Of a stretch of DNA of 64,000 nucleotides, positions 37,138-55,830 are shown piece by piece. The first letter of the stretch is position 1. Every line of letters starts with the position of its first letter. The stretch covers positions 4,000,001-4,064,000 of the forward strand of contig CAVUSO010000001.1 of assembly GCA_963744145.1 (NCBI GenBank), read 5' to 3'. A program made the translations under genes and the position numbers. This DNA is from an uncultured cyanobacterium (GTDB taxonomy: Bacteria > Cyanobacteriota > Cyanobacteriia > Cyanobacteriales > CAWUOF01). The notes below the pieces were generated by a model that saw only the letters and a program-made list of their open reading frames with translations, did no database searches and had not been told where the DNA came from.

Positions 37138-37822
37138 ATGAGTACAGATATTCAAGCAACGTCCAAAAGCATAATTTTGCAAACCAGTCAGCTATTAGAC
37201 CTACTGCTGATCATTTTTCCCCAATATACACGCGAGAAAATCCGTGCATATCTCTATAAAAACTATCGGGAGTATAACAAATCCTTAGATATCAAAGGAA
37301 TGATCGTCACCTATGCGGGGCAACCTGGGGGGAATGGCAGACAGCACCATTGGAAAGTTGATGTCACTAACGCATCCCAGAGATTAAAGAAAATTTTCAG
37401 CGAGTATCAACGAAAGTCAGTCTCAATTGTTCCAGCACCCCCCCAAGACAACCAAGGCCGAAAATGCACCACTAGAATGGAATGGGTTATTTTTACGATC
37501 GCGAGCAGAGTTGAAAATTGCCGAAGCCTTGGATCAAGCCAATGTGTTATTTTTCCCCAATAGTCGCTGTAGAGTGAGCGATCGGGATAACCAGAGAAAC
37601 ACGATCGAGGTAGATTTTTTGATTATCCATCAGGGAAAAATCGGGATATTAGAGGTTGATGGGGCAACTTATCACAAGTCCGCTGCTACAGACCATAAAC
37701 GCGATCGGCTATTCATGCGCCAAGGAATTATGTGCAGTCGGTTTGATGCGGGTGAATGTATGGTAAATCCCCAGAATATTGTTGAAGAGTTTCTGGAGTT
37801 GTTGAGTAGAGGAAAATTATGA
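37138..37822 (+). pseudogene. PD-(D/E)xK/DUF559-like nuclease gene split by a frameshift in a C7 run
   Basis: Overlapping ORFs 37138-37563 and 37427-37822 fuse to 227 aa if one C of 37438-37444 is removed; RSRAELKIAEALD, EVDFL, LEVDG..H. Confidence 0.65.
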
Positions 37823-39200: not shown

Positions 39201-39815
39201 ATGGTTAATTATGTGTTACGCAACTCGCTTAAAAAAGAAGATATAACCTTACAAACACAAATACAATGGTTTTACCCCATCTTAATAGAAAAAGTTTACA
39301 ATGTATGGGCTTATGTGGGTATAGATAAAGATAGAACCATTCTTGTTGGTCGTAATTCTCTACCATATTTTATTCGTAAATTTCAAACTTTAGAACAAGC
39401 ATATATGGAAAAAATAATGCTGCAATCATTATATAATTGTCCTTTTAAAATTGGTGGATATGATGAGAATAAAGAAAAATTTGATGAATTATGTTCGTTT
39501 AATATTCCAGGGATTTTGGATTTTTGTAATAATTTAGAGTCTGGAATAAATTTATTAAAACAATCTGAGAATAACCTAGATATTCCAGACCACATATTTG
39601 AAGGGCTTCTAGCAATTAAAGAGACAAAGATGATAAATTTTTTTGATACAGATATGGTTAAGCATTACGCTATTGCTTTAAATTTTCCTGAAACAGCAGA
39701 ATGGATTTGTACTAATTTGAATATTTATTTAGAAGGCATTTTGAAAGGATTCAATGTCAAAAAAGTAAAGAAATCGAAAAGTAAGAAAATAAAAATGTCT
39801 CAGATGAAAGCTTGA
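39201..39815 (+). CDS. Hypothetical protein
   Basis: 204-aa AT-rich ORF with GAGG RBS, just upstream of sspB. Confidence 0.6.
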   Translation: MVNYVLRNSLKKEDITLQTQIQWFYPILIEKVYNVWAYVGIDKDRTILVGRNSLPYFIRKFQTLEQAYMEKIMLQSLYNCPFKIGGYDENKEKFDELCSFNIPGILDFCNNLESGINLLKQSENNLDIPDHIFEGLLAIKETKMINFFDTDMVKHYAIALNFPETAEWICTNLNIYLEGILKGFNVKKVKKSKSKKIKMSQMKA

Positions 39816-39930: not shown

Positions 39931-40854
39931 ATGACTAAACAACTTAGTTTTTATTTAGATGGTGCTGCAAGTCAAGTAAATGTGAATGCAGTATTTGCCC
40001 GCCATGAAACATTTCATCCTCGGTTTGGCTGGATTAAAAAAGGTTTTGATGCAGCGATGGAAGATCCAAGTATTTTTAATGTTGATAATGCTCCAGTGCG
40101 ATTAGGCGTTGGAAAAAATATGGTCAATGCAATTCGTTATTGGTGTAATACTTTTAAAGTTTTGGAGGATGATATGCCAACAAAGTTTGGTGAAAGTCTT
40201 TTGGCTACTAATGGTTGGGACCCGTTTTTAGAAGATCCAGCTTCATTATGGTTACTACATTGGAATCTTCTCAAACCACCATGTAATGCAACCACTTGGT
40301 ATTTTGCATTTAATATTTTCCACCAAGTTCAATTTTCTCAAGATGAATTTTTTAATGCTCTATGTAACTATAAAGACACAGTTGCTGCTCGAATAGTTGA
40401 ATCTTCGGTTAAAAAAGACGTTAGTTGTATTTTCAGAATGTATGTTAAACAAGTAGTTTCCAAAATAGGTGTTAGCGAAGATACTTTAGATTGTCCCTTT
40501 ACTGAATTAGGTATTATCCATACTGCTGGAGACTCTAGACATTATACTTTTCGAGTTGGCTCTAAGCCTACTTTACCACCAGCTCTAATTGTTGCTGCTT
40601 GTTTGGAGTATGCTAGTTGGGTAGCACGCGAACAAAGAACTATTTCTATTTCTCGTCTTCTCTATACTATTGGTAGTCCTGGAGTAATTTTTAAATTGAC
40701 AGAAAATGCTATTTGTGATGCTATTGAACGAGTAGCAAGACACTCAAACTTAATTGCGCTCTCAGAATCTGCTGGTTTAATTCAATTTTCCTACAATTCC
40801 GATCCAGAAGAGTTAGCAAATAGTATTCTAGATAGGTACTATCTTAGTAGATAA
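39931..40854 (+). CDS. sspB: DUF4007 family protein, SspB-like
   Basis: FARHETFHPRFGWIKKG, LGVGKNMVNAIRYW, DPFLEDPASLWLLHW, CPFTELG. Confidence 0.82.
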   Translation: MTKQLSFYLDGAASQVNVNAVFARHETFHPRFGWIKKGFDAAMEDPSIFNVDNAPVRLGVGKNMVNAIRYWCNTFKVLEDDMPTKFGESLLATNGWDPFLEDPASLWLLHWNLLKPPCNATTWYFAFNIFHQVQFSQDEFFNALCNYKDTVAARIVESSVKKDVSCIFRMYVKQVVSKIGVSEDTLDCPFTELGIIHTAGDSRHYTFRVGSKPTLPPALIVAACLEYASWVAREQRTISISRLLYTIGSPGVIFKLTENAICDAIERVARHSNLIALSESAGLIQFSYNSDPEELANSILDRYYLSR

Positions 40855-40892
40855 AACCATTCAATCAACCAGTCAACCACAAGGAATCAATA

Positions 40893-43800
40893 ATGAATAA
40901 GCAGTTATCCCAATATTTTAGTCTTAAACGTCGTTATTTTCGTTCTATTAACTTAGAACGGGATTTAGATAAAGTGGATGCCTTAGAAGGCTATATTCCA
41001 ACAGAAAGGGCACTTGAAGTAATTAAGCGTATTGTAGCAGGATTAAATGGGACTTCTAATCATCTAGCATGGACAGTAACCGGAGTATATGGTACTGGTA
41101 AATCAGCCTTTGCTCATTTTCTGACTTCTTTGTGTGCCCCTAACAATAGTCAGATGCGACAAGAAGCATTGAAAATAGCTGCTACTGCATTTGAAATTGA
41201 TAGTCTAGAATATCAAACCCTAAATGAAACTATTCCAACCCAAGGGTTATTTCGAGCTGTGGCTACTGCCCAAAGAGAACCATTAAGTAACACAATTATT
41301 AGGGCAATTTATCGCGGAACTAATCTATTTTGGACGCCACAAGAATGTTCTAAGATGAGTATTTGTAGAGAACTTGTAGATTTAAATGCTGAGATAAACA
41401 ATGGTGCTATTATAGATAGTCGTCGCGTTTTAAAATTAGTACAAGAATTAGCTATCAAAGCTAAAACTGGTATCTTATTAATTGTTGATGAGTTAGGAAA
41501 AAACTTAGAATTTGCTGTCCAAAATCAAGGGTTTGAGGATTTATATTTGTTTCAGCAGTTGGCTGAACTGCCTAAAAACAAAAATTGTCAGATTTATATT
41601 CTTGGCTTATTACACCAATCTTTTGCTGATTATGGAGAGAGATTAGCATCTGTCCAGCGGAATGAATGGGCTAAAATTCAGGGAAGATTTGAGGATATTC
41701 CTTTTAAAGACTCAGATACACAAATGATGAGTTTAATCGGTCAAGCTATTGACTCATCAAAGGCTGAACCATTCTTTGATAAGATTCAAGATCAAGTATC
41801 AGACTGGTTTGAATATTTACCTAGTGAGATTACTAATGATATTGCTAAGTCAATTTTTACTAATGCTTATCCATTACATCCGATCGCAACGTTAGTTTTA
41901 CCCAAATTATGCACTCGTTATGCCCAAAATGATCGTTCTCTTTTTACCTTTCTTACCAGTGCTGAACCTTATTCGTTTCAAAACTATTTAGAGGAAGCTA
42001 CTGTAGAAGAAATTACTGTAGAGGAAATTAATGCACTTTCAGGAAGTATTTTACCAACTCTAAAACTAGATCGAGTTTATGATTACTTTATAGAAGCTGT
42101 AGGGTTAGGGTTAGCATCTAGACCTAATTTACAACGTTGGGTAGAAATTCAAACATTAATCAATGATGCTAAAAGTTTAGAGGAAGATAGTTTACGAGTA
42201 TTAAAGACAATTGGTATTTTAAACTTAGTTACTACCACAAGTCCTTTGAGAGCTACTCGAACTTTAGTTACACTAGCTATGTGTGATTTTGCTACAGATG
42301 ATAACAAGGCACTATGGGAGCAAGAGATTGATAATCTTTTACAAAAAGGTATTCTTACTTATCGGCGACAATTAGATGAGTTAAGAATTTGGCAAGGGTC
42401 TGATTTTAATGTTGATATTGAATTATCTAAATACCTTGAACAAGAGCGTTCACATTTAGTTAATCTTTTGTCTGATCTTCGTCCTTTAAGTCCTTTAGTT
42501 GTACAACGTCACAGTTATACAAAGGGAACATTGCGTTATTTTGAACGTAGGTATTTAGATGGAAGAGAAAAACTAAATGGGCTTCAATGTACTAATTCTG
42601 ATTGTGATGGTTTAGTAGGGTACTGGGTAGACAATAAACTACCTGATGCAGTTCCAAGTGAAACAGCAGATGGCAAACCGTTAATTATTTTAGCAGCGGT
42701 TAAACTAGATTTATTGCAGATTAGAGCAAAGGAATTTGCAGCCTTAAAAAAAATTCAAACAAATGCGATCGAATTACAAACCGATGGAGTAGCAAGGCAA
42801 GAAGTGCGTTATCGGCTGATCCAGGCTGAAGAATTATTGGATGAGATGCTGGCAATATCATTTGATGTAGCTACTTATAAAAATCCTTGTTGGGTGCTGG
42901 GAAAATCGGAAACGATTAGTCATATCAAAGATTTTAATGCTAAATTATCTGATGTTTGCGACCAGGTTTATAGTTTCAGTCTAACCCTGTGGAATGAGTT
43001 AATTAATCGTCGAGAGTTAACTTCCCAAGGGTCAAAAGCAAGAAGAGAATTAATTGAGGCTATGCTGGAACATCCTGAAGAAGAAATACTTGGACTTTCA
43101 GGGTATGGTCCGGAAGTAAGTATGTATTATTCAGTGTTAAATGAAACAGGTATTCATCGCCAACAAGATGATGTCTGGGGATTTTACCCACCCAATGAAA
43201 ATTCTGGTGTTAGTACAATTTGGCAAGTAATTGAGGAGTTTTGTTTTTCTGCTAAGGACAAACAAAAAACATTAGATCATCTCTACACCCAACTGGCAGC
43301 ACCACCCTATGGAATTAAACAAGGGGTTATTCCAGTATTACTCGCAGCAGTTTTGCTCTATCATGTTGATGATGTGGGAGTTTATAAAGAAGGTACATTT
43401 ATTCCTGTTTTGGGAATAGAACATTTTGAACTGCTGCTCAAAGACCATTCTCGTTTTAGTGTTAAATATTTTGAAATAGTGGGATTGCGATCGCAGGTTT
43501 TTAAGGAACTGGAGATGATCTTGCGATCGCCTAATGCCCAAAAGTTAGTAGGGATTAGAAATACTACCTTGTTAGCTGTAGTGCGGCCATTATTTCAGTT
43601 TGTGAAAAAACTACCTGCCTATACTAAGAAAACCAAACGTTTTAGTCCTGAAGGTTTAGCCGTATTGCAAACTTTACAGAAAGCCCAGGAACCAGATGAA
43701 TTGTTATTTAATTCCTTGCCAAAAGCCTGCGGCTTACCTCCAATCATGGTAAATGCTGAGGTAGATGAGGTAAATAATGAGGGTGATGGTACTATTGCCA

Positions 43801-44453
43801 AAACTTTACGCAAGAAATTAGTCACAGCACTACATGAAATTCAAACCGCCTATGATCGTTTATTAGCTGAGTGTCAATCTTTATTACATAGTGCCTTTGC
43901 GGTGAGGAGTGATGAGCATAGACTGCGGGAAGACTTACGGGTGAGAGCAAGCTATCTATCTGGCCAATGTATAGAACCTCGAATTAAGAGTTTTGTGAAC
44001 GCAGCAACCAATGAAACTTCAGTAGACTCAGAATGGTTAGAGGCTTTGGTCATGATTGTGGCTGATAGGCCAGCAGAGTCGTGGACTGATGAAGATGTTA
44101 CAAATTTTGAAGTTAAGCTTTCGGATTTGGCCAGACGGTTCAAAAATTTAGAGGCGATTCAGAAAGACGCGCAAACCCATACTAAAGAAGGATTTGAGGC
44201 AAGAAAAATCACGGTAACTCGTCCGGATGGACAGGAAACCCATTCTCTAGTTTGGTTTGATCATGAAAATAAAACTAAAATTCAAGATATAACTAAGAAA
44301 CTGTTGGGAATATTAAATGAGTATGAGCCACGGCTATGGCAAGCTGTGGTAACTGAGTTAACTGAACAAGTTATGAGGGTAACGCCCTCTGATGGTGTAG
44401 CCCAACAGCGGGAAAAACGTCAAAAAGGGAAGGATGAGCAAAAAACCAGTTAG
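40893..44453 (+). CDS. sspC: Large P-loop ATPase, SspC-like
   Basis: RSINLERD, Walker A GVYGTGKS, Walker B LIVDELGKNLE, EWAKIQGRF, YPLHP, QNDRSLFTFL, PPYG. Confidence 0.78.
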   Translation: MNKQLSQYFSLKRRYFRSINLERDLDKVDALEGYIPTERALEVIKRIVAGLNGTSNHLAWTVTGVYGTGKSAFAHFLTSLCAPNNSQMRQEALKIAATAFEIDSLEYQTLNETIPTQGLFRAVATAQREPLSNTIIRAIYRGTNLFWTPQECSKMSICRELVDLNAEINNGAIIDSRRVLKLVQELAIKAKTGILLIVDELGKNLEFAVQNQGFEDLYLFQQLAELPKNKNCQIYILGLLHQSFADYGERLASVQRNEWAKIQGRFEDIPFKDSDTQMMSLIGQAIDSSKAEPFFDKIQDQVSDWFEYLPSEITNDIAKSIFTNAYPLHPIATLVLPKLCTRYAQNDRSLFTFLTSAEPYSFQNYLEEATVEEITVEEINALSGSILPTLKLDRVYDYFIEAVGLGLASRPNLQRWVEIQTLINDAKSLEEDSLRVLKTIGILNLVTTTSPLRATRTLVTLAMCDFATDDNKALWEQEIDNLLQKGILTYRRQLDELRIWQGSDFNVDIELSKYLEQERSHLVNLLSDLRPLSPLVVQRHSYTKGTLRYFERRYLDGREKLNGLQCTNSDCDGLVGYWVDNKLPDAVPSETADGKPLIILAAVKLDLLQIRAKEFAALKKIQTNAIELQTDGVARQEVRYRLIQAEELLDEMLAISFDVATYKNPCWVLGKSETISHIKDFNAKLSDVCDQVYSFSLTLWNELINRRELTSQGSKARRELIEAMLEHPEEEILGLSGYGPEVSMYYSVLNETGIHRQQDDVWGFYPPNENSGVSTIWQVIEEFCFSAKDKQKTLDHLYTQLAAPPYGIKQGVIPVLLAAVLLYHVDDVGVYKEGTFIPVLGIEHFELLLKDHSRFSVKYFEIVGLRSQVFKELEMILRSPNAQKLVGIRNTTLLAVVRPLFQFVKKLPAYTKKTKRFSPEGLAVLQTLQKAQEPDELLFNSLPKACGLPPIMVNAEVDEVNNEGDGTIAKTLRKKLVTALHEIQTAYDRLLAECQSLLHSAFAVRSDEHRLREDLRVRASYLSGQCIEPRIKSFVNAATNETSVDSEWLEALVMIVADRPAESWTDEDVTNFEVKLSDLARRFKNLEAIQKDAQTHTKEGFEARKITVTRPDGQETHSLVWFDHENKTKIQDITKKLLGILNEYEPRLWQAVVTELTEQVMRVTPSDGVAQQREKRQKGKDEQKTS

Positions 44454-45234
44454 GCATATTCTTGGGTTATCTGGTGGAAAAGACAGTACAGCCTTAGCAG
44501 TTTTGCTGTACAAGGAGATCCCGCAGATGGAATATTTTTTCTGTGACACTCATAAAGAATTGCCAGAAACTTACGAATATCTGGAGCGGATTAAAGCCCG
44601 TCTGGGTATTAAGATCCATTACTTAAGTGCTAATAGGGGGTTTGACCATTGGCTAGATATTCATGATGGATTGTTACCATCGCCCCAAATGCGCTGGTGT
44701 ACCGTCATGATGAAAATTAAACCTCTTGAGGATTTTGTCGGTAATGATGAAACCATTAGTTACATAGGTATTAGAGCAGATGAAAACCGCGAGGGGTATA
44801 TTTCTACTAAGCCAAATATTAAGCCTGTCTTTCCATTTAAAGAACGTGGATTAGTTAAAGCTGATATCTTCCGTATTCTTGAAGAAACTGGGATAGGACT
44901 GCCAGATTATTATCGTTGGCGTAGTCGTTCTGGTTGTTTTTTCTGCTTTTTCCAACGTAAGTATGAGTGGGTTATGTTAGCACAAGAACATCCAGAGCTA
45001 TTTGCTGAAGCGGTTAAATACGAGCAAGGACATAAAGATGGGCGAACTTATACATGGATTCAAGGTGAGACTTTGTTGAAATTGCTAGAGCGTAAAGATG
45101 TGATTATTGCTCAACATGAAAAGTCAATTGCTAAGGAGAAAAAGACAGATCTAAATCGTCCATTAGCTGAAGTACTAGCTTCAGCTTTAGATGATGAAGA
45201 TAATGCTTTGCCATGTTTAGCTTGTCATCTTTAG
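44434..45234 (+). CDS. sspD: PAPS reductase family protein, SspD/DndC-like
   Basis: PP-loop LSGGKDS, RWCT..MKIKP, GIRADE, RSGCFFC, terminal CLACHL; overlaps sspC. Confidence 0.82.
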   Translation: MSKKPVRHILGLSGGKDSTALAVLLYKEIPQMEYFFCDTHKELPETYEYLERIKARLGIKIHYLSANRGFDHWLDIHDGLLPSPQMRWCTVMMKIKPLEDFVGNDETISYIGIRADENREGYISTKPNIKPVFPFKERGLVKADIFRILEETGIGLPDYYRWRSRSGCFFCFFQRKYEWVMLAQEHPELFAEAVKYEQGHKDGRTYTWIQGETLLKLLERKDVIIAQHEKSIAKEKKTDLNRPLAEVLASALDDEDNALPCLACHL

Positions 45235-45284
45235 GTAGTAAATAGTAACAAAAAAAAGGTAAAATTTTTTGAGGTTATTTGATA

Positions 45285-47057
45285 ATGACTGAACAGAATA
45301 AGAATTCTTTAGTTGATGTTGACCTAGCTATAGATGCAAGTAGAGTATGTTTTGGATTGAGTCGGATTGGATACACTCCTGCCAGTGCTTTATGTGACAT
45401 AATAGATAACTCAGTTCAAGCTGGAGCTAGAATTATTAATATATTGATTAGAAAAAATAGAGATGATTTAGGTGATAATCGCAAGAACAATGTCAAAGAA
45501 TACATTGTTGTTGATGATGGTAAGGGAATGAGTAATGAAGGTATTCAAAATTCTCTAAAATTAGGGGCTTCTGCGGATAACTATGAATATAACTCTCTAT
45601 CAAAATTTGGTCTAGGCTTGAAGTCTGCTGCGTTTTCTCAAGGGGAAGAACTTCAGGTTATATCTTCAACAGGTGAAGGATTTAATAAATATATAATATC
45701 TCTTCCAGCAATTGCAGATAAACAAAAATATTTTGCTTCTCGATTAGATTTAGATGAATTTGATCAAGAATTGATCCATAAGTATCTATCATCAAAACAA
45801 GGAACAATCATTAGAGTGACACAAATTAGGATGATTAATCATCCTAGTGTAAAAAATACAATTGAAGAATTAAAAACCAAAGTAGGAACTATATATTACT
45901 ACTTTATGAAGGATGGTTTAGATATTAAAATTGACGATGAATCAATAGAGCCATTTGATGTACTTTGTGTTGAAGAAGCTAACTCTAATGGCAATTTAGA
46001 TGAAAACGAATGGGATGGCAAAACAGTTAAATGGATAGAAAAAGAAAAAGAAATAACTCTTGATGCCGATGCTAATGTTAAAGCAAAAATAGAAATAACT
46101 CAACTTCCTTATCCACCACTTTTTGAATTAGAAAAACCTGGAGAGCAAAAGAAAATCAGGGATAAATACAAGATTGATGCTGGTAATTATGGATTTTATG
46201 TTTACAGAAACAAACGCTTAATTTCGTGGGCAGAATCTTTTAACGGAATTATTCCTCCAGACCAAGAATTATACGCCTTTAGAGGTCGTATATTGATTGA
46301 TGAATCAGCCGACGATAGCTTTAATATCGATGTTAAAAAGTCAACCATAACTTTATCTGATGAAGCACTTAACGAAATTAGTGACCGTTCTGATGAATAT
46401 AAACGCAAAAGTAGAAAAGCTTGGAGACGAGCTAACTCCCTAAGAAAACAAATGTTAGGGAGAGATCCAAATTCTACCTCTAATAGTATTGCGTCTGAAT
46501 TTGAACCTCCAGATTTTCTTCCTGGGGAACAACTCCCTACTGTACAAATAGAGAATGAAAAAAATAAAAGAGAAAAAGAGATAGAGACTGAAATGCTCTC
46601 TAGAATCCGGAGAATTGCTGCGCGAGATAAAGGTGAATCTGAAGGACGGAAAATTACTGAGGATGAATTAGAGAAAAGCGATCTTGAAATAGCACTTAAA
46701 GGGAAGTCAAACCCAGAAGCCAGCAAAATTTATAGAGTAGAATCAGTTGAAGATAATGCTCTTTGGGAGCCTTACTATGATACCGATCATGGAGGTTGTG
46801 TAAGAATTAACAAAGGTCATAGGTTTGCCAGATTAGTTTTTGAAGATAATATTGACAATACTGATTTACAGGTGATTTTTGATTTATTGTTATTGCAATT
46901 AGCAACAGCAGAAACTTATATTCAAAAATCAATTACTTCTTCTCCACGCTCTGAAATTGAGAAATTAACTTCTGAATATAGGCGTATTACTTCAGAATAT
47001 TTGGCAGCTTTGTGTCGAAATCGCGAAGGAAAACTTCCTCCTATTAGAGAATCATAG
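45285..47057 (+). CDS. GHKL (HATPase_c_3/MORC-like) ATPase 1
   Basis: ALCDIIDNSVQA, VVDDGKGM, SKFGLGLKSA, GTIIRV, GFYVYRNKRLI. Confidence 0.85.
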   Translation: MTEQNKNSLVDVDLAIDASRVCFGLSRIGYTPASALCDIIDNSVQAGARIINILIRKNRDDLGDNRKNNVKEYIVVDDGKGMSNEGIQNSLKLGASADNYEYNSLSKFGLGLKSAAFSQGEELQVISSTGEGFNKYIISLPAIADKQKYFASRLDLDEFDQELIHKYLSSKQGTIIRVTQIRMINHPSVKNTIEELKTKVGTIYYYFMKDGLDIKIDDESIEPFDVLCVEEANSNGNLDENEWDGKTVKWIEKEKEITLDADANVKAKIEITQLPYPPLFELEKPGEQKKIRDKYKIDAGNYGFYVYRNKRLISWAESFNGIIPPDQELYAFRGRILIDESADDSFNIDVKKSTITLSDEALNEISDRSDEYKRKSRKAWRRANSLRKQMLGRDPNSTSNSIASEFEPPDFLPGEQLPTVQIENEKNKREKEIETEMLSRIRRIAARDKGESEGRKITEDELEKSDLEIALKGKSNPEASKIYRVESVEDNALWEPYYDTDHGGCVRINKGHRFARLVFEDNIDNTDLQVIFDLLLLQLATAETYIQKSITSSPRSEIEKLTSEYRRITSEYLAALCRNREGKLPPIRES

Positions 47058-47059
47058 AT

Positions 47060-47570
47060 ATGAATATTTTAGGACAGCCTATTTGGAGCTTAATATCTAC
47101 TTGCTTTAATGGTTCTGATATAGCTTACATATATTTATGGATATCAAAAAAATATAAAGTTATATATGTAGGTCAGACAAACGGAAAACGAGGCTCTTTT
47201 GGTAGAGCTTTTAGTCACATCCAAGATGGCGGTACTCTTCGATTACAGTTTGAAGAAAAAGTTGGTATCAAGCTAGAAGAAGCAGATGATTTAGTTCTTG
47301 TATCTTATCCTCTTCCTCAGCAGCAAGAATATATGAGCATAGAATCCTCATATCGTGAGGCTATCGAATATCTAGTTCAGATAAAACTAAGAGATATTCG
47401 AGGAAAATTAGAATCCTAAATTTAATTTAATTTCTAATATTAGGTCTTCAGATAGAGTCCCAAATTGTACTCTAGAAAAGTACGCAGACGAAATTGTTAA
47501 AAATTTTCAAGACAATTATTCTAAGATAGGCATAAAAACACAAATAACTCAGGATAAAATTAATTTTTAA
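47060..47570 (+). pseudogene. GIY-YIG-like nuclease with a +1 frameshift near 47411
   Basis: YIY...IYVGQT, GR..SH, REAIE; the shifted frame continues NPKFNLISN... for 52 codons to TAA 47568-47570. Confidence 0.55.
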
Positions 47571-47601
47571 TTAGACTTAAGAATATATAAGAGTAGCCTA
47601 A

Positions 47602-49230
47602 TTGAGATTCGACGACCTACTATCACGAGCAGACGACAAGACGCTACAAAGCTTACTTGGTAGCGCCGCAGTACGCCTAATCAGACTTCTCGACCCTAGT
47701 CTTGCTACCCCAACTCGCCTGCGAGAAATTTTACTCAGCCTGCACTCACGCGAGAGTTTATTGCTATCCAAAAACTCTCGTTTGTGTCTTTTTGAACTTT
47801 TACGACCACAAGAAGCTAAAATCCTTGCTTTAATTCTAGATGCTCCAAATCATCAAGATATCTACCAATCTTTAAAAAAAGTCAAAATTCGTCGTGGTTC
47901 CGATCGGGAACGCGCTCTTTTTGACTTCTTTGAACTGAGTGTACCCGAAATTGAAGTAGCTATAGAAGCCGCATCAGTAGAGTTAACAACACCTAAATAC
48001 CCATTATTCGCACATCAACGCCGCGCCGCACAGCAGGTCAAACAGTACCTTACCCAAGACCCCCGGCGCGTTCTACTACATTTACCTACTGGAGCGGGAA
48101 AGACGCGCACCGCTATGAATGTTATTGCAGATCACCTACGATCGCATGAACCGACCATTGTAATCTGGTTAGCCTATAGTGAAGAACTCTGCGAACAAGC
48201 TGTGGCAGAATTTAAACGCGCATGGGAATATCTTGGCGATCGCCAACTCGTAGTCTACCGTTTCTGGGGAACTCACGAAATAAACTTAGAGCAAGTGCGT
48301 GATGGTATTGTCGTCGCTGGACTTTCTAAAGTCTATAACGCAGTCAGACGTAGCATTAGATTTATTAACCAACTTGGTGCGCGTGCTTCCTTAGTTATTA
48401 TTGATGAAGCACACCAAGCGATCGCCGAAACTTATCAATTAATTCTCGATGCTTTAGTGATTCCCTATAAAAACACAGCACTGCTAGGATTAACAGCAAC
48501 CCCAGGGCGCACCTGGGCTGATATTAGTACAGATGCTAAATTAGCTCAATTTTTTGCCAACCATAAAGTTACTTTGGAAATTCCTGGTTATGAAAATCCT
48601 ATAGAGTATTTGGTGGCAGAGAAATATTTAGCAAAAGCACAGTATCGCTCCCTATTTTATGAAAGCGGCTTAAAGTTAACTGAAAGAGACTTAGCGCAGA
48701 TTGAAACAGATTTAGAAATTCCATCATATATTCTTAATCAATTAGCTGAAGATGAACAACGCAACCTAAGAATTATTTTAGAAATTGAAAAACTCACTTA
48801 TCGACATCAGCGAATTTTAGTGTTTGCTATTTCTGTAGAACACGCTCGACTCTTAGCCTGTGTACTCCAAATCAGGGGTCTAAAAGCAAGTGCTATAACA
48901 GCTAATACGCCTCCCCAACAGCGAGAGCATTTAATCACTAGCTTTAAAGATAATTCAACAGATCCCAAAATACTTTGTAACTTTGGTGTCCTCACTACAG
49001 GATTTGACGCACCACGCACCAGCGCCGCTGTAATTACCCGTCCTATAAAATCTCTGGTTCTTTATAGTCAAATGGTAGGGCGTGCGATTCGAGGACTGAA
49101 GGCAGGAGGCAATGAAACCGCAGAAATAATCACTGTTGTTGACAGTAACTTGCCAGGATTTGGTTCGGTAGCAGAAGCTTTTAGTAACTGGGAAGATGTG
49201 TGGAATTTAACCAAAAATAAAACTGAATGA
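47602..49230 (+). CDS. SF2 DEAD/DEAH (ResIII-type) helicase
   Basis: LPTGAGKT, IIDEAH, GLTATP, VLTTGFDAP, QMVGRAIR. Confidence 0.9.
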   Translation: MRFDDLLSRADDKTLQSLLGSAAVRLIRLLDPSLATPTRLREILLSLHSRESLLLSKNSRLCLFELLRPQEAKILALILDAPNHQDIYQSLKKVKIRRGSDRERALFDFFELSVPEIEVAIEAASVELTTPKYPLFAHQRRAAQQVKQYLTQDPRRVLLHLPTGAGKTRTAMNVIADHLRSHEPTIVIWLAYSEELCEQAVAEFKRAWEYLGDRQLVVYRFWGTHEINLEQVRDGIVVAGLSKVYNAVRRSIRFINQLGARASLVIIDEAHQAIAETYQLILDALVIPYKNTALLGLTATPGRTWADISTDAKLAQFFANHKVTLEIPGYENPIEYLVAEKYLAKAQYRSLFYESGLKLTERDLAQIETDLEIPSYILNQLAEDEQRNLRIILEIEKLTYRHQRILVFAISVEHARLLACVLQIRGLKASAITANTPPQQREHLITSFKDNSTDPKILCNFGVLTTGFDAPRTSAAVITRPIKSLVLYSQMVGRAIRGLKAGGNETAEIITVVDSNLPGFGSVAEAFSNWEDVWNLTKNKTE

Positions 49231-49341
49231 TTTGTCTAAATTATTAGAAATTTTCTCATTTAGCTACAATTGTTATTTTAGTTAAATTTTGGGTAAATAT
49301 AAAATAGAGCGTTTTTAGATTATGTTGGACACTTCACACAA

Positions 49342-51174
49342 ATGACAGCAAATCCTCATGACATCGTTCCAGCCCATCTAGCAGTACAAGCAATGCGTGA
49401 TAATGGCTACAGGAATGCCGCTTACGCGATCGCTGAACTGATGGACAACTCAATCCAAGCAGGTGCTACTCATGTCGAGTTACTCTGTGCAGAGAAAAAA
49501 GAATTAGTCAATTCTAGACAACGCTCGCGCATCCATCAAGTCGCTGTCTTGGACAACGGTTGTGGTATGGATGCTAGCGTATTGCGGATGGCATTGCAGT
49601 TTGGAAACGGTACTCATCTTAACGAAGCTGATGAAAATCGTGGAATTGGACGTTTTGGGATGGGACTACCTTCTTCATCAATTTCTCAATGCCAGCGTGT
49701 CGAAGTTTGGTCTTGGCAAGAAAGCCCAGAAAATGCCCTTTATAGTTACCTTGACCTCAATGAAATTCGTCAAAGGCGGATGACTGAAGTACCTGAACCA
49801 CAGCTAAAAGCAGTTCCTCATCTCTGGTTGAAAGTAGGTAAATATTTTGAGAGCAGTGGCACCCTAGTCGTTTGGTCGAATATTGATCGTTGTATTTGGA
49901 AAACAAGTAACTCAATTATTGATAATTCTGAACTGCTTATTGGCAGGATGTACCGAAAATTCTTAAATAGCGGTCAAGTTGAGATTCGGATGTTTGCATT
50001 TGAGATAGATGATCTAATCCCCATCGTTAATGAGAAAAAAGCTCGACCCAATGACCCTGGTTATCTGATGGCAAAAACCTCTTGCCCTAAACCCTTTAAC
50101 GAAATCTCAATGTTCCAACCTTGGGGAGATGAGGATCAGTATGAAGCCATCGTCACAATTGATTTTCGGGGTAAGTCCCATGAAGTCAAAGTTCGCTACT
50201 CCTATGCTAAAGAAGAAGCTAGACTAACTGGTAAGCGTGGTAGTAATCCAGGTGAACAACCGCACGGCAAACACGCTGCTAAAAACATTGGTATTTCCCT
50301 TGTACGAGCAGATCGAGAATTAGAACTAGATCAAGAGTTAGTCATTAAATATGATCCAGTAGAACGCTGGTGGGGAGTCGAAATTGAGTTTCCACCAGGA
50401 CTAGACGATTTGTTCGGCGTAACTAATAACAAACAAACAGCACGGAACTTCACTGAAATTGCTAAGTTAGATATAGAATCCCTTTTAGGAAATGATAAAA
50501 CTATCATTGAACTTAAAGACGAACTAAAAGAAGACGAAGATCCAAAAGGTCCTCTACTAGAACTTGTAATGAAAGTAGATGCACAACTTAAAATTATCCG
50601 TCGTTTACTGAAAGCACAGACTAAAGGTACTCGCGGCACTGATGAGAAGCGCTATAAAGAAGTTTCTGAAGAAAAAGGAACTTATAAAACAGGAACTCGC
50701 AAACAAGAAGGCCATAAAGGCGGAAGCGATAAAGATGAATCACTACCCAAAGAAAAGCGTGAAGAAGTCATTAAGGATGCTTTAGTCAAGCAGGGCGTAG
50801 CTGAAATTAGAGCTAAGGAACTCGCGGCAACTACTGTCGATAATGGACTCAAGTACACTTTTGCTGAAACTGACATAGAAACTGCTGCTTTCTTTTCCGT
50901 CACACCAAGAGGTGGTAGTATTATTATCATGCTTAATACTAACCATCCAGCTTACAAAAATCTTATGGAAATTTTAGCAGAAGAGGTAGAAGGAGTTGAC
51001 GTAGAAATCTTACGCGGGCGTTTAACTAACTCCCTGGAAGGATTGAAATTACTTTTGATGGCATGGGCGCGTTATGAAGACGAACAACCAGATGGAAAAA
51101 GAAAACAAGCCGCTCAAGATGCCCGAGTTGACTGGGGAAGAATCGCGCGACAATTCCTAGAAACTGAAGAATAG
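49342..51174 (+). CDS. GHKL (HATPase_c_3/MORC-like) ATPase 2
   Basis: AIAELMDNSIQA, LDNGCGM, GRFGMGL, GTLVVW. Confidence 0.87.
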   Translation: MTANPHDIVPAHLAVQAMRDNGYRNAAYAIAELMDNSIQAGATHVELLCAEKKELVNSRQRSRIHQVAVLDNGCGMDASVLRMALQFGNGTHLNEADENRGIGRFGMGLPSSSISQCQRVEVWSWQESPENALYSYLDLNEIRQRRMTEVPEPQLKAVPHLWLKVGKYFESSGTLVVWSNIDRCIWKTSNSIIDNSELLIGRMYRKFLNSGQVEIRMFAFEIDDLIPIVNEKKARPNDPGYLMAKTSCPKPFNEISMFQPWGDEDQYEAIVTIDFRGKSHEVKVRYSYAKEEARLTGKRGSNPGEQPHGKHAAKNIGISLVRADRELELDQELVIKYDPVERWWGVEIEFPPGLDDLFGVTNNKQTARNFTEIAKLDIESLLGNDKTIIELKDELKEDEDPKGPLLELVMKVDAQLKIIRRLLKAQTKGTRGTDEKRYKEVSEEKGTYKTGTRKQEGHKGGSDKDESLPKEKREEVIKDALVKQGVAEIRAKELAATTVDNGLKYTFAETDIETAAFFSVTPRGGSIIIMLNTNHPAYKNLMEILAEEVEGVDVEILRGRLTNSLEGLKLLLMAWARYEDEQPDGKRKQAAQDARVDWGRIARQFLETEE

Positions 51175-52102
51175 CCAAAAAAATTGTGATTATACCGGGA
51201 ATTCAATTAGAAAAGATTTGTACAGAAGCCTATAAGGAAATTCTTCTTGTTGCTCCTTTTATTAAGGCTTCTGTTCTTAAAAAATTACTTACACAAATAT
51301 CTTCTGAAGTCACCATAAAATGTGTTACCCGCTGGCAACCTGAAGAGATTATTGCAGGTGTGAGCGATTTAGAGGTATGGTCTTTGCTTAAACAACGTCC
51401 TCAATCTTTTCTTTGGTTAAGACCCAACTTACACGCTAAATATTACCGTGCTGATGAACAATGCTTAGTGGGTTCAGCTAATTTAACAGCGAAAGCTTTG
51501 GGTTGGTCAAAGCTATCTAATCTTGAACTAATGATTCAATTACCTGCTACTCAAGGAAATTTCCAGACTTTTGAAACCGAACTTTTCCAAGGTTGTATTC
51601 AGGTTGATGAGAATTTGTTTGAGCAAATGTCAACAACAGTGCAGCTATTAACTGCACAATTTCTCAAAAATTTGTCTATTATTAGTATCATTTCTGATAG
51701 TTTAGCAGAAGATTCAGATATTACAGAAATTTGGCTCCCTAGTTTGCGAAATCCAGAAAATTTGTATTTAGCCTATTCGGGACAAGAGGATAGATTGACT
51801 TTAATATCACGGGATGCAGCTGCTCAAGATTTGCGATCGCTATCTATTCTTCCTAATCTAACGAAAATAGCTTTTATATCTTATGTAGGAGTTATTTTAC
51901 TCCAAAAACCTATCATTCAAAAAATAGATTCCTTTGTTATAACACCGCAGACATTTGGTGCTGTAAGAGATTTATTAGCATCTCTTTCTTGTGCAAAGTT
52001 ACCAAATTTTCAAGCTGATCGCGCTTGGCAAACATTAATGCGTTGGTTACTATATTTTCACCCTAATCAAAACACTTAATCAATGCACAGTATTCAGGCA
52101 TT

Positions 52103-52125
52103 AAAAAACCACCTAGGTAGGTGGT
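52103..52125 (-). terminator. Intrinsic terminator after the IS110 recombinase
   Basis: Minus strand ACCACCT-ACCT-AGGTGGT followed by a T run. Confidence 0.7.
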
Positions 52126-52139
52126 GCCAAACAATACAG

Positions 52140-53420
52140 TTACATTCTACACAAAATCCTAAACAGCAATCGCATGGCGTAATTAATTAGTTGTGATCGA
52201 GCTAATCTTATTGGTGTTTTGTTAATTTTCATCTCATCAAATTTCTTATGCAATGCAATGTTCAGAGGTAACGTCTCCATCACTGTAATCCACTTACCAT
52301 CAGGTTTACCGTTCTCCCTGAACTGATAACCTTTCTCTACTTGGATATTGCAGTGCTTTACCCTAGCGTGCTTGATTTCAATCCTAGTGAAGCACCATTG
52401 AAACAACGCGGTTTTACAAATATCAGAACCACCGCTACTCACTTTATTTTCTAAATCTCCTGAGCTTTCTTCTCTAGGAGCGCAGCCTAAGCCTTTCAGG
52501 AAACGTGCCAAAGACAGATGGCGCTTAGTATTTCTCTTTTCTCCTGGGTAGAACTTAACATCTGGTTTACCGTCTACCAAATAGTTCTCGATCGGAAAAA
52601 CCTGACTGATCAAGATTGACTGAATCCTCAAGCCAAAGCCAAATTCTTTAAAAACTTTCCGATATTTGTCAAACCTGACATCTTCCAGTAGCAGCGATCG
52701 CAGTTCTCGTTCGATTACAATCTCCTCTTCCTGAATCCCGCAGATCCGTTCAGCGTGCCGTCGCACATCGTCTTTCAATCCAGATCCACCAGTTGCAGCG
52801 TAAAGGCGATCATATTTGGCTGATTTCTTCTTGCCTGCTATCCACGCCCAAAGCAAAGGTAAATTTTCTCCTTCTGGTAATCGGCGTGAATTGATCAATG
52901 CTGCTTCAGGAAATTGCCATGCTAGCTTTTGTCTAGCGTAATTGATAATTGGACTTTGCACCCTATTGAGGTGTGCAAGTTGCAGCACTAGCTCTCGAAT
53001 TCGCACAATTGTGAAATCTCTAACTTGCAAGAATTCTCGATTATTATCTCCGTACTGCATCCCGTAAAGTGCTAATGCAAGAGCGTCGTTAGTATCTTTC
53101 TTATCAGGAAGTCTTAAAGCTTTCCGGTGTTCTTTTAACTTCTTGTGATCAACTAACCTAAGTTCTATCCCAGCACGAGCAAGATGAGTTGACCAAAGCT
53201 TTAGGTAGTTCACCCCCGTTGGTTCTGCTACGGCGATAACATCAGAGCGATCACCAATAAATTCCAACAACAGTTTCAGTCCATGTGAATCTGCATGGAA
53301 AATTTCAAAGTGCTTCTTAGACCTAGCGTATGCTATAATGTCAGCAGGTTTTTCTAACAATAAGCACACGGTCACAGTTGCCTTTGATACGTCCAATCCA
53401 AGGTAACGTTTATTATTCAT
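52140..53420 (-). CDS. IS110 DEDD recombinase/transposase
   Basis: YLGLDVSK, AEPTG, KKDTNDA (DEDD); C-terminal GCAPREESSG catalytic-serine motif; ATG 53420 (or TTG 53444). Confidence 0.92.
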   Translation of the reverse strand: MNNKRYLGLDVSKATVTVCLLLEKPADIIAYARSKKHFEIFHADSHGLKLLLEFIGDRSDVIAVAEPTGVNYLKLWSTHLARAGIELRLVDHKKLKEHRKALRLPDKKDTNDALALALYGMQYGDNNREFLQVRDFTIVRIRELVLQLAHLNRVQSPIINYARQKLAWQFPEAALINSRRLPEGENLPLLWAWIAGKKKSAKYDRLYAATGGSGLKDDVRRHAERICGIQEEEIVIERELRSLLLEDVRFDKYRKVFKEFGFGLRIQSILISQVFPIENYLVDGKPDVKFYPGEKRNTKRHLSLARFLKGLGCAPREESSGDLENKVSSGGSDICKTALFQWCFTRIEIKHARVKHCNIQVEKGYQFRENGKPDGKWITVMETLPLNIALHKKFDEMKINKTPIRLARSQLINYAMRLLFRILCRM

Positions 53421-53454
53421 TTTTCGCTTAGGTGATATTGCCAAAATCTCATCT

Positions 53455-53680
53455 CTGCGGTTTACGAATCACCCAAAAACCCAATGTTAAACACGAGTTT
53501 GATTCACCCTTAAAACCATTAATTAGAGAGAGATTAAGTTGAGTTATGAGTAGCCGAGTTTATGAAAATAGAAAAACCCTAAAGAGTTTGTTTCTTCCTT
53601 AAAACCCTAAGTTACTCTTATCCAACTGCAAGAAGGTTTGGAAGCTTCCTGCTACCTCCCCAGGGGAGAGGTTTCGTCTA
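53455..53680 (-). ncRNA. Putative IS110 bridge RNA
   Basis: Two homologous loops with shared scaffold; guide segments match the target (53591-99, 53564-70) and the IS ends (53503-10, 53468-75); boundaries approximate. Confidence 0.7.
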
Positions 53681-53971
53681 GTGGCTAACTAGACTCATCA
53701 GGAAGGTCTAAAACTCAGCGTTCATTTCTATGGGGTGAGGTAAATCATCAGGTTAGTCCTCATCATCATCAGGGTGATCCTGGTCTACGACGGTATAACC
53801 TTCTAGAGTTATGTCCTCGACTTCAAATAAGTTACTAGGTATCTCGTCATAATGCTCATCTGGGTGATCATTTTCTTCCTAATCGTTATGCTTTATCAGT
53901 TCCTAATTACTCTGAAGTATTTTACCGACTCAAAACTAACAAGTAGTTTATTTAAGTAACATAGGCAAAGT

Positions 53972-55141
53972 ATGAATATTCAAACCTCTCAAACTCGTGC
54001 AATATATCTTGACTACCACTCTACAACACCTGTCGATCCAAGAGTGGCAGAGATAATGCTGTATCACCTAACAGTAAATTTTGGCAACGCTAGCAGTACA
54101 GATCATACTTATGGCGATGAAGCAGCAGAAGCAATATTACAAACTTGTCGTAACGTTGCTGAATTAATAGGAGCTAAACCGCGAGAAGTTATATTTACTT
54201 CAGGAGCAACTGAAAGCATTAATTTAGTAATCCAAGGGAGTTTAGTTAATTCTGAAAAACCTCAAAAGATTGGTTTACTATCAGTTGAACATAAAGCAGT
54301 TTTAGATACCTGTTATACTTTAGCGAAAAAGAGACTTGTTCAACTAATTGAACTCCAAGTTGATTCAATGGGTAGACTTGACCTCGAATATCTAGAGCAA
54401 ATTTGTAGATCAGGTTTATCTCTGCTTTGTATAATGGCAGCTAATAATGAGGTAGGTAATATTTACCCGATTAAAGAAATTGGCAAAATTGCTCAGAATT
54501 ATGATATTCCTTTCTTGTGTGATGCTTCCCAAGCAGTTGGAAAAATTCCGATTAACTTTGAAGACTGGGGAATTACATATTTAGCAATTTCAGCTCATAA
54601 ACTTTATGGACCAAAAGGCTCAGGGGCTTTAATTGTAAGAAAAGGTCATAACTTAACCCCTCTGATATTTGGAGGAGGACATCAAAGAGGGATGAGGTCT
54701 GGAACTCTTAATGTCCCTGGTATAGTTGGATTAGGAGAAGCTTGTCACCTTCGTTTAGAGGAAATGGATACAGATGAAAAAGCGATCGCAAATCTTAGAG
54801 ATAGATTGCAAAACTTACTAATAGATAAAATTCCTGGTTTAGTAATTAACGGAGATAGATCAAATCGTCTACCGGGCAATCTTCATATTTCAATCCCAGA
54901 TGTTCCTAATAGCGCCATTATTGCTAGAGTACGCTCTAAATTAGCTATTTCAACTGGTTCAGCTTGTTCATCAGGTGTTGAAGCTCCTTCTCATGTACTT
55001 CGAGCTATGGGTCTTCCTTCTCATATAATTGAAGGTGCATTACGGATTGGGATTGGTAAATTTACGACATCTGAAGATATAGAACAAGCTGCTGATATTC
55101 TTTCAACTGCCGTTGGTCGTACTCGTCAAGTTTTGTCTTAA
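53972..55141 (+). CDS. sspA: Cysteine desulfurase (IscS/DndA/SspA-like)
   Basis: YLDYHSTTP, FTSGATES, AANNEVG, SAHKLYGPKG, STGSACSS; ends the ssp operon; symbol from context. Confidence 0.85.
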   Translation: MNIQTSQTRAIYLDYHSTTPVDPRVAEIMLYHLTVNFGNASSTDHTYGDEAAEAILQTCRNVAELIGAKPREVIFTSGATESINLVIQGSLVNSEKPQKIGLLSVEHKAVLDTCYTLAKKRLVQLIELQVDSMGRLDLEYLEQICRSGLSLLCIMAANNEVGNIYPIKEIGKIAQNYDIPFLCDASQAVGKIPINFEDWGITYLAISAHKLYGPKGSGALIVRKGHNLTPLIFGGGHQRGMRSGTLNVPGIVGLGEACHLRLEEMDTDEKAIANLRDRLQNLLIDKIPGLVINGDRSNRLPGNLHISIPDVPNSAIIARVRSKLAISTGSACSSGVEAPSHVLRAMGLPSHIIEGALRIGIGKFTTSEDIEQAADILSTAVGRTRQVLS

Positions 55142-55379: not shown

Positions 55380-55830
55380 CGAGGGCAAAGCATTCCGGTC
55401 ATAGTTTTCTTCATTTAGGCAATCACTGATCTGCCGGAATGCTTTGCCCCTACAGACCCGGACAAAATTCTGTTCATGTTTTATTTAGGTTCGCTATAGA
55501 GCAATACGGTTCAGTTATCTGTAGGGGCGAAGCATTCGGGCGATCATTTATTGCTCAAGTTCGTTAATATTATATCCGAATGCTTCGCCCTTCTGCGCCG
55601 ATATCTGTAGGGGCATAGCATTCGGGCGATCATTTATTGCTCAAGTTTTACCCTGAGCGAAGTCGAAGGGCCGTTAATATTATATCCGAATGCTTCGCCC
55701 AGTTCTGCTGCGCCGATATCTGTAGGGGCGAAGCATTCGGGCGATCATTTATTGCTCAAGTTTTACCCTGAGCGAAGTCGAAGGGCCGTTAATATTATAT
55801 CCGAATGCTTCGCCCTTCTGCGCCGATATC
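55380..55830. repeat. REP-like palindrome cluster including three tandem units
   Basis: TATCTGTAGGGGC(G/A)..GCATTCGGGCGATC...CCGAATGCTTCGCCC units at 55516, 55602 and 55717; units 2 and 3 carry TTACCCTGAGCGAAGTCGAAGGG. Confidence 0.88.

Follow-up and report, generated by a model that had tools for sequence, protein, structure and literature searches.

Which effector works with the phosphorothioate (PT) writer of an uncultured cyanobacterium is the question raised by the operon at 39931-55141 of the window, as we call the whole stretch of 64,000 nucleotides analysed here (contig CAVUSO010000001.1, positions 4,000,001 to 4,064,000). SspABCD writes single-strand PT marks on host DNA, which is established for the family, and this operon carries such a writer together with five genes between sspD and sspA: a GHKL ATPase (GHKL1), a GIY-YIG nuclease (GIY), an SF2 helicase, a second GHKL ATPase (GHKL2) and a phospholipase D (PLD) type HKD nuclease. 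Judged from sequence comparison, the locus is a known writer plus two undescribed, independently mobile MORC-nuclease modules, GHKL1-GIY (module I) and helicase-GHKL2-PLD (module II). With a probability of about 0.6, we read them as swappable MORC-clamp effectors behind SspABCD that would cut DNA without PT. The host genome is referred to as G000 (96.3% complete), and coordinates without a prefix are window positions.

Two modules in one variable slot

The first-pass annotation had taken the five inner genes for one effector with two clamps, which did not survive the comparison of related loci. The scan of species genomes gave at least 75 GHKL2 loci, at least 54 of which have a full-length relative, in a sample biased to close relatives; L055-L075 (21 of 75), which matched in the N-terminal ATPase region only, were excluded from all counts. 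GHKL1 was followed in a metagenome scan of 35 loci. GHKL1 with GIY was found in one of the 54 listed GHKL2 loci (L002), and the helicase-GHKL2-PLD set in one of the 35 GHKL1 loci, and on these counts a single five-gene, twin-clamp unit was rejected. In L099, which is the closest intact relative with 82% identity in helicase and GHKL2, the helicase gene is next to sspD. Because of this low co-occurrence and the missing module I in L099, the window stacks two independent modules in a variable slot 3' of sspD. The GC content is 32-34% in module I versus 42% in the helicase and GHKL2.

In other loci the slot after sspD holds SspE, DndB-like/DGQHR genes or a helix-turn-helix HNH (HTH-HNH) gene. The HTH-HNH gene, cyanobacterial and about 460 amino acids (aa) long, stands in the ssp operon of 11 of 54 loci (L012, L016, L017, L023-L027, L030, L033 and L047), where the helicase is usually absent or truncated N-terminally and sspD or PLD is often missing; it was found also in ssp loci without GHKL2. 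DndB-like/DGQHR genes come right after sspD in L013, L019, L022, L028, L029, L034, L054, L143 and L144, often behind a small unannotated gene that gave no match to the GIY profile. Besides, TIGR04096, a putative PT-associated methyltransferase, flanks 9 of 54 GHKL2 relatives.

Module II and its linkage to the ssp genes

Among the matches listed, the helicase adjoins GHKL2 in 51 of 54 loci and PLD is present in 30 of 54, while sspB or sspC stands beside GHKL2 in 40 of 54 loci and in 30 of the 34 with long flanks. The four long-flank loci without sspB or sspC are three from Microcoleus and one from Nostoc. Co-occurrence of the inner genes with sspBCD in other genomes, which had been named as a check on the early proposal, was thus found for GHKL2, and for GHKL1 it holds, with respect to sspD, in 21 of 21 informative loci. 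The gene orders of module II are tandem, convergent or split. GHKL2 relatives occur in at least 13 phyla and the full set of helicase, GHKL2, PLD and sspD in at least 10; the family is large, with 1,082 clusters (50% identity) at E 1e-30 or better, more distant relatives included.

In 400 genomes of the window's phylum, GHKL2 was matched in 12 and SspC in 32, with 11 having both against an expectation of 0.96 (Fisher p 1.6e-12, a significance that kinship overstates), and in 8 of these 11 the two lie on one contig within 13 kb. The other SspC genomes (21 of 32) have no GHKL2 match; the regions of 19 of the 21 were examined, and SspFGH was found in 3 and SspE in 1. On plasmids, GHKL2 was found in 18 records, 13 of them at about 35% identity or more. 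In all of the ten close plasmid matches that were opened, the helicase gene and genes like sspBCD lie within 18 kb, in some of them, such as L155 and L156, as bare seven-gene cassettes, and both helicase and ssp are missing in the two opened distant matches (27-28% identity). PLD is present in 8 of the ten opened loci, while the other 2, from alphaproteobacterial plasmids, have an unrelated gene instead. This gene (L145:9028-10107 and L157:13786-14865) replaces PLD after GHKL2 and encodes a 359-aa protein, the two copies being 59% identical to each other; it has no PLD or GIY similarity, and the protein is a candidate for a new nuclease.

The window helicase (47602-49230, plus strand, 542 aa) matches ResIII/DEAH/Helicase_C, with GKT at residue 166, DEAH at 268 and motif VI at 490 all intact, and its N-terminal 125 aa or so carry no domain match. 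GHKL2 (49342-51174, plus strand, 610 aa) was modelled with a pLDDT of 84.4, and the model matches SMCHD1 (Z 20.2, root-mean-square deviation 4.7, 345 aligned), MORC3 (Z 19.3) and MutL (Z 18.9). It has the canonical E-x-x-D-N, the motif I Glu being present in 35 of 35 alignment rows. The GhXhhpXXRhl signature in S5, given for MORC proteins in PMC2292703, is found in 0 of 35 rows, with a relaxed form at residue 317, and we call GHKL2 paraMORC-like because this MORC signature is missing. GHKL1 and GHKL2 align as homologues over their whole length (hhalign 99.2%, 524 columns, 20% identity), and both model as GHKL plus S5, the domain pair of prokaryotic MORC proteins. The ExxxH of paraMORC2 is in neither window ATPase.

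The PLD gene of the window is split. Its 5' part (51186-52059, plus strand) matches PLDc_2 (E 1.6e-5) with the single HxK, GSAN and NxE intact, and the frame ends at 52079, six codons into an insertion sequence. The last 24 codons stand detached at 53876-53950 on the same strand, where they match PLD profile positions 299-319 of 320 (E 4.7e-7) and share 63% identity over 27 codons with the end of the intact L099 gene. The family has one HxK motif with invariant partner residues, and single-HKD PLD nucleases are expected to dimerise. Its nearest solved relative is 7clg (E 4e-4), a PLD-helicase which we take to be SauUSI. The C-terminal domain had Atlas scores below 0.9 and no PDB match to that part; our guess is a winged helix.

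The inserted element (52060-53875, minus strand) belongs to the IS110 family and is single-copy in the genome, with its transposase at 52140-53444 (NF051857, 437 bits against a cut-off of 180). In soil run X1, no joint skipping the element was found among the pieces listed, and there was read depth in all bins over it. Its ends (52045-52075 and 53861-53891) resemble the target: the two junctions agree in six bases, differ in two and agree again in the next seven. The non-coding end at 53445-53875 (431 bases) contains sequences close to both halves, some 30 bases from each other; it gave no Rfam match and could encode a bridge-type RNA. Through this insertion, module II of the window has probably lost full activity.

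Several other arrangements of module II were observed. A Microcoleus-type clade (L003, L004, L005, L009, L014 and L107) has intact helicase and GHKL2 in housekeeping-like surroundings, without PLD or sspBCD, and in three of these loci the pair lies behind an aminotransferase class V gene; the pair is possibly domesticated there. In L010 and L145/L159, helicase and GHKL2 stand directly 5' of sspFGH and the ssp writer, without PLD. In L006 and L148 module II goes with a BrxP-type PAPS reductase ahead of sspB, from which module II may serve BREX-4-like writers too.

Module I

GHKL1 (45279-47057, plus strand, 592 aa) is a classical prokaryotic MORC of GHKL, S5, coiled coil and C-terminal domain, as identified from HATPase_c_3, the structure model and the MORC signature. 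The model has a pLDDT of 67.5, and its first matches are MORC2/3/4 and SMCHD1. The GhXhhpXXRhl signature in S5 is present in 56 of 56 rows (residue 305 in the window protein), and motif I has Asp for Glu (D-x-x-D-N) in 54 of 56 rows, the window protein included.

The nuclease gene follows at 47060-47546 on the plus strand, with a frame break at about 47412 and a stop at 47417-47419. The open reading frame (ORF) 47060-47419 gives 119 aa versus about 150-163 aa in homologues, and positions 112-150 of the family profile are matched in the next frame (E 6.9e-9). A contig from soil run X1 (46775-47965) is otherwise identical over 1,190 bases and has an open GIY frame because it carries one base fewer at 47412; this open-frame evidence is one contig at depth 5. 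From these sequences, module I of the window may be either intact, the break being an assembly slip, or newly broken. As they stand, both nucleases in this strain look damaged.

The earlier label of a GIY-YIG-like gene holds as to the nuclease family, through homologues rather than the window copy, which has a broken frame and no Pfam match. The L002 homologue matches PF01541 (25.2 bits, cut-off 22.6), the only one to do so, as those of L114, L136 and L149 had no Pfam match at 1e-4. Atlas neighbours reach 0.97, with GIY-YIG on 39% of members. The catalytic set of GIY-YIG nucleases consists of Tyr, Tyr-x-Gly, Arg, His and Glu, and this set is present in the family, where Y17, Y19, Y30, G32, R43, H47 and E97 are invariant in 25 rows. 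The GIY profile found nothing under E 1 among solved structures. Co-folding of GHKL1 with GIY from L114 gives weak support for a complex (0.44 versus 0.00 for the best control; contacts agree in at least 93%, partner pLDDT at least 78). The mark used for co-folds is reached by 116 of 157 solved pairs and 2 of 215 mismatched pairs, and at 0.60 or below by 18 of the 157 and both mismatches.

GIY comes after GHKL1 in 34 of 35 loci, and sspD precedes GHKL1 in all 21 loci with at least 1.2 kb upstream, as it does in L002 and in L149, an additional module I lineage in which an insertion separates sspD from GHKL1. Module I is rarer than module II in our scans. GHKL1 was found in 1 of the 400 genomes of the window's phylum and in 1 of 381 of G401's phylum; it was absent from the plasmids and viral contigs scanned and from 401 genomes of G402's phylum, the last scan being without a positive control. 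Its family counts 603 clusters at E 1e-20 among 8,000 scored and is rarer than that of GHKL2. In L114, L123 and L136 a PbeA gene comes after sspBCD-GHKL1-GIY, followed in L114 by a PbeC-like ABC ATPase; Pbe is described with Dnd writers.

The Ssp writer and the surrounding sequence

The writer genes were identified with PADLOC (2023 release) and Pfam. The DNA-recognition/nicking subunit sspB (39931-40854, plus strand, 307 aa) is a DUF4007 protein (PF13182 E 1.5e-99; PADLOC SspB E 1.1e-124). The P-loop ATPase sspC (40893-44453, plus strand, 1,186 aa) matches PADLOC SspC with 1,541 bits (E 0), with Walker A at residue 64 and Walker B at 195 intact. A stand-alone PAPS-reductase-family sulfur transferase is encoded by sspD (44434-45234, plus strand, 266 aa; PADLOC SspD 370 bits, 2e-111, versus 56 for BrxP), and it retains all columns conserved in 90% of 31 homologues. 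The cysteine desulfurase sspA (53972-55141, plus strand, 389 aa) matches SspA with 456 bits (3.5e-137) and DndA with 459 bits, and has the PLP lysine and the SACS motif. SspB, SspC and SspD are thus clustered with SspA by PADLOC, with their motifs intact, and three more IscS-like genes (37-43%) are found elsewhere in the genome.

The nine genes that the first-pass annotation had placed in one co-directional run are all at their positions on the plus strand; the run itself is broken by the IS110 element with its minus-strand transposase. Its statement that the operon has no SspE was borne out by PADLOC, and the profile PDLC02789 for SspE, a DUF262+DUF1524 protein, had no match in G000 (96.3% complete) either, while the same profile matched in 5 of 14 genomes as a control. 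PADLOC gave no match to SspF, SspG or the FtsK-like SspH on the operon proteins, and tblastn with the L010 SspFGH gave one 186-aa match of FtsK type, located far from the operon. In PADLOC and profile searches, the inner genes matched neither SspFGH nor another described system; such a match would have counted against the early proposal.

Promoter and terminator scans of the window stayed at or under shuffle level, and the window has no Rfam match and no tRNA. Upstream of sspB lie a DUF559-type endonuclease-like gene (37427-37822) and a 204-aa gene (39201-39815). The latter was considered as a part of the system and rejected: no match to it was shown in any of 54 GHKL2 loci, so it is placed outside. 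At 55380-55830, 3' of sspA, there are repeated palindromic elements with very high read depth drawn from many places, as in a dispersed repeat family.

Outside the window, G000:C1:4504471-4508500 holds three genes (532, 668 and 128 aa) resembling dndC, dndD and dndE; the labels were given by eye, not by profile. The cluster has a PAPS-reductase match and an ABC-type Walker A, and a Dnd writer may be present in the host in addition to Ssp. Remote from both PT clusters are a TIGR04096-like, PT-associated putative methyltransferase (G000:C1:2763053-2765188, 41% identity to the L031 copy) and a weak DndB-like match (G000:C1:2655056-2656426).

Discussion

In the mechanism we propose, SspABCD would put single-strand PT on host DNA as a self mark, and two separate effector modules of one design would be plugged in behind sspD. 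Each MORC-type GHKL ATPase would form a DNA clamp gated by ATP and allow a nuclease to act on unmarked DNA. In module II the SF2 helicase would translocate or unwind and the single-HKD PLD would cut; in module I the small GIY-YIG nuclease would dock on the clamp, as MutH does on MutL. The gene identities, the catalytic motifs intact in the families, the folds, the tight ssp linkage and the independence of the modules are observations, to which we add by inference the defence role, the PT dependence, the cutting of unmarked rather than marked DNA and the order of the steps. The simplest reading would be a restriction-modification (R-M) system with PT as self mark, in which a MORC clamp stands between recognition and cutting.

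Several known systems share parts with the modules. DISARM consists of DrmA, DrmB and DrmC with a methylase; here DrmC reaches 26.7 bits versus 133, and DrmA or DrmB are not among the matches listed (for the helicase, 25 of 31 families). BREX type 4 does not fit either, with SspD at 370 bits versus 56 for BrxP and no PglZ or BrxL among 13 proteins scanned. A GHKL ATPase in anti-phage defence is common to Mza and to VcSduA, a GHKL-Shedu. Mza is defined by full-length MzaB plus partner genes, and the MzaB profile gave 81-89 bits against a cut-off of 850, in the N-terminal part only, with no other Mza match. VcSduA has its PD-(D/E)xK nuclease fused, and its GHKL domain was proposed to exert control over a nuclease; the accessible text mentions no link to PT (PMC12137116). 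The MORC/paraMORC operons of Iyer, Abhiman and Aravind (2008, PMC2292703) share the GHKL plus S5 ATPase, the Rad25-type SF2 helicase and the HKD nuclease; with their methylases they were predicted as R-M systems that loop and cut DNA. Their mark is DNA methylation, whereas the window has the Ssp writer as partner and the HKD nuclease as a separate gene; no methylase was found among the window operon genes by Pfam, PADLOC or profile searches. In its accessible part, PMC2292703 makes no mention of PAPS reductase, desulfurase or GIY-YIG partners.

PbeABCD (PMC10853773) has in common a PT-linked HKD nuclease, an SF2 helicase and an ATPase, but PbeA is an HKD-helicase fusion working with a CxC ABC ATPase and paired with Dnd, while the window has a separate nuclease, a GHKL ATPase and the Ssp writer. 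The window helicase matches PbeA in the motor only (83 bits), and neither the operon nor the intact homologues have a PbeC match. SauUSI-type enzymes (PMC12707154) share PLD and helicase with module II; they are one chain with an SRA reader and cut methylated DNA, and no SRA domain was found here. SspABCD-SspFGH and SspABCD-SspE have the same writer genes, and their effector genes likewise adjoin sspBCD. Damage to DNA without the mark, and toxicity when PT is missing, are known for SspFGH (PMC8092258), and we propose this behaviour for the window modules. Unlike SspE and SspFGH, the window effectors are MORC-type GHKL ATPases with SF2 helicase and PLD or with GIY-YIG, and no SspE, SspF, SspG or SspH homologue is present.

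Some results weigh against PT-licensed clamps. No PT-reading domain was identified in the five inner proteins. Of the 33 long-flank loci (L010, whose ssp operon runs past the locus edge, is left out), 25 have sspD and 21 of these carry PLD too; the 8 lacking sspD all lack PLD, with helicase and GHKL2 often remaining. This pattern comes down to 4 independent pairs (sign test p 0.5). L098 keeps the PLD catalytic domain with the C-terminal core deleted and has no sspD in its contig. Helicase and GHKL2 are intact without sspBCD in the Microcoleus loci L004, L005 and L014 and in G396, so that the pair appears to have a life without PT. The rank correlation of identity matrices is 0.85 within pairs (helicase-GHKL2 and SspB-SspC) versus 0.33-0.62 between writer and effector, which indicates that cassettes were exchanged between writers; such exchange is consistent with interchangeable effectors and permits hitchhiking without PT as well. 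For module I, one clade dominates: the 24 ssp-linked GHKL1 sequences fall into 13 groups at 90% identity, 6 at 70% and 5 at 60%, and 20 of the 24 join at 60%. L100 has a truncated GHKL1 without GIY and without ssp, and other effectors are often near GHKL1 (SspE in 2 of 35; PbeA in L114, L123 and L136).

These points leave room for other explanations. The modules might be PT-activated like SspE, the clamp being switched on by PT in host DNA and silent without the writer. This would account equally well for the tight linkage, and SspE itself, which works by PT activation (PMC8092258), occupies the same slot in L015. We regard it as unlikely, since a harmless orphan should sometimes retain its nuclease and PLD is kept in 0 of 8 sspD-less loci, a result that is not significant after kinship. 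Somewhat less credit still goes to backup defences that would work independently of PT, such as abortive infection, and for which the ssp operon would be no more than a landing slot. The modules do swap against the writer and many kinds of cargo are found in the slot; decoupled PT writers and restriction modules were argued in PMC10853773, and BREX loci often contain backup nucleases (PMC12839542). Such passengers hardly explain the near-complete linkage over several gene orders and bare plasmid cassettes, nor why GHKL2 at 27-28% identity lacks helicase and ssp in both opened cases.

A role in maintenance, in which a MutL-like clamp, a helicase and a nuclease excise or remodel PT sites, e.g. 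oxidised ones, would follow the logic of mismatch repair, with MutL among the top GHKL2 fold matches and the modules sitting between sspD and sspA. It is improbable given that 21 of 32 sampled SspC genomes have no GHKL2 match and that iscS-sspBCD functions without modules in E. coli (PMC8092258), and mobile, patchy, often decayed loci fit defence better. We would be most surprised by a single five-gene machine with a GHKL1-GHKL2 heterodimer. Its two ATPases are homologous end to end and stand together in the window, L002 and L116, and neighbourhoods of MORC with paraMORC1 were noted in PMC2292703; against this stand the co-occurrence of 1 in 54 and 1 in 35, the absence of module I from the closest relatives and the GC difference between the modules. 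Swappable MORC-clamp effectors acting on unmarked DNA thus remain our preferred reading.

In the accessible literature we found no paper that names either module with ssp, the Tiamat preprint (10.64898/2026.09.30.754977) included, in line with the initial statement that an experimentally characterised system of this make-up is not known; supplements of PMC2292703, PMC12839542 and PMC10853773 may list such neighbourhoods. In their accessible text, GHKL does not occur in PMC10853773, nor GHKL or MORC in PMC12839542, and the main text of PMC12914056, as far as accessible, has no occurrence of helicase, HATPase or phospholipase. Supplementary Data 2 of PMC12914056 places HATPase_c_3, one of two families for that cluster among the matches listed, near 221 of 1,056 SspD of the largest cluster, with the GHKL1 and GHKL2 families not told apart; the table appears incomplete because DUF4007 is not among its rows. 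Among 2,678 sspBCD loci, another survey counted 196 with SspFGH, 199 with SspE and 36 with both, about 85% having neither (PMC8092258).

In conclusion, we suggest tentatively, at a little less than even odds, that MORC-type clamps make up a major class of Ssp effectors which has yet to be named. Its two paralogous families, both tied to the writer, would respond to PT status and let exchangeable nucleases act (PLD with helicase, GIY-YIG or the 359-aa protein), and they would be commoner partners of sspBCD than SspE or SspFGH. The frequency rests on GHKL2 in 11 of 32 SspC genomes and on the HATPase_c_3 share above versus about 7% each for SspE and SspFGH, which come from different surveys. The window copy is a poor test subject because IS110 splits its PLD gene, while the natural module cassettes are compact and suited to testing in E. 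coli. The modules are candidates for a large part of the sspBCD loci without a known restriction partner, and they offer a small system for the self/non-self question where few sites carry PT. They also bear on the role of prokaryotic MORC ATPases, a prediction since 2008; if our reading is true, prokaryotic MORCs would respond to a mark on the DNA backbone.

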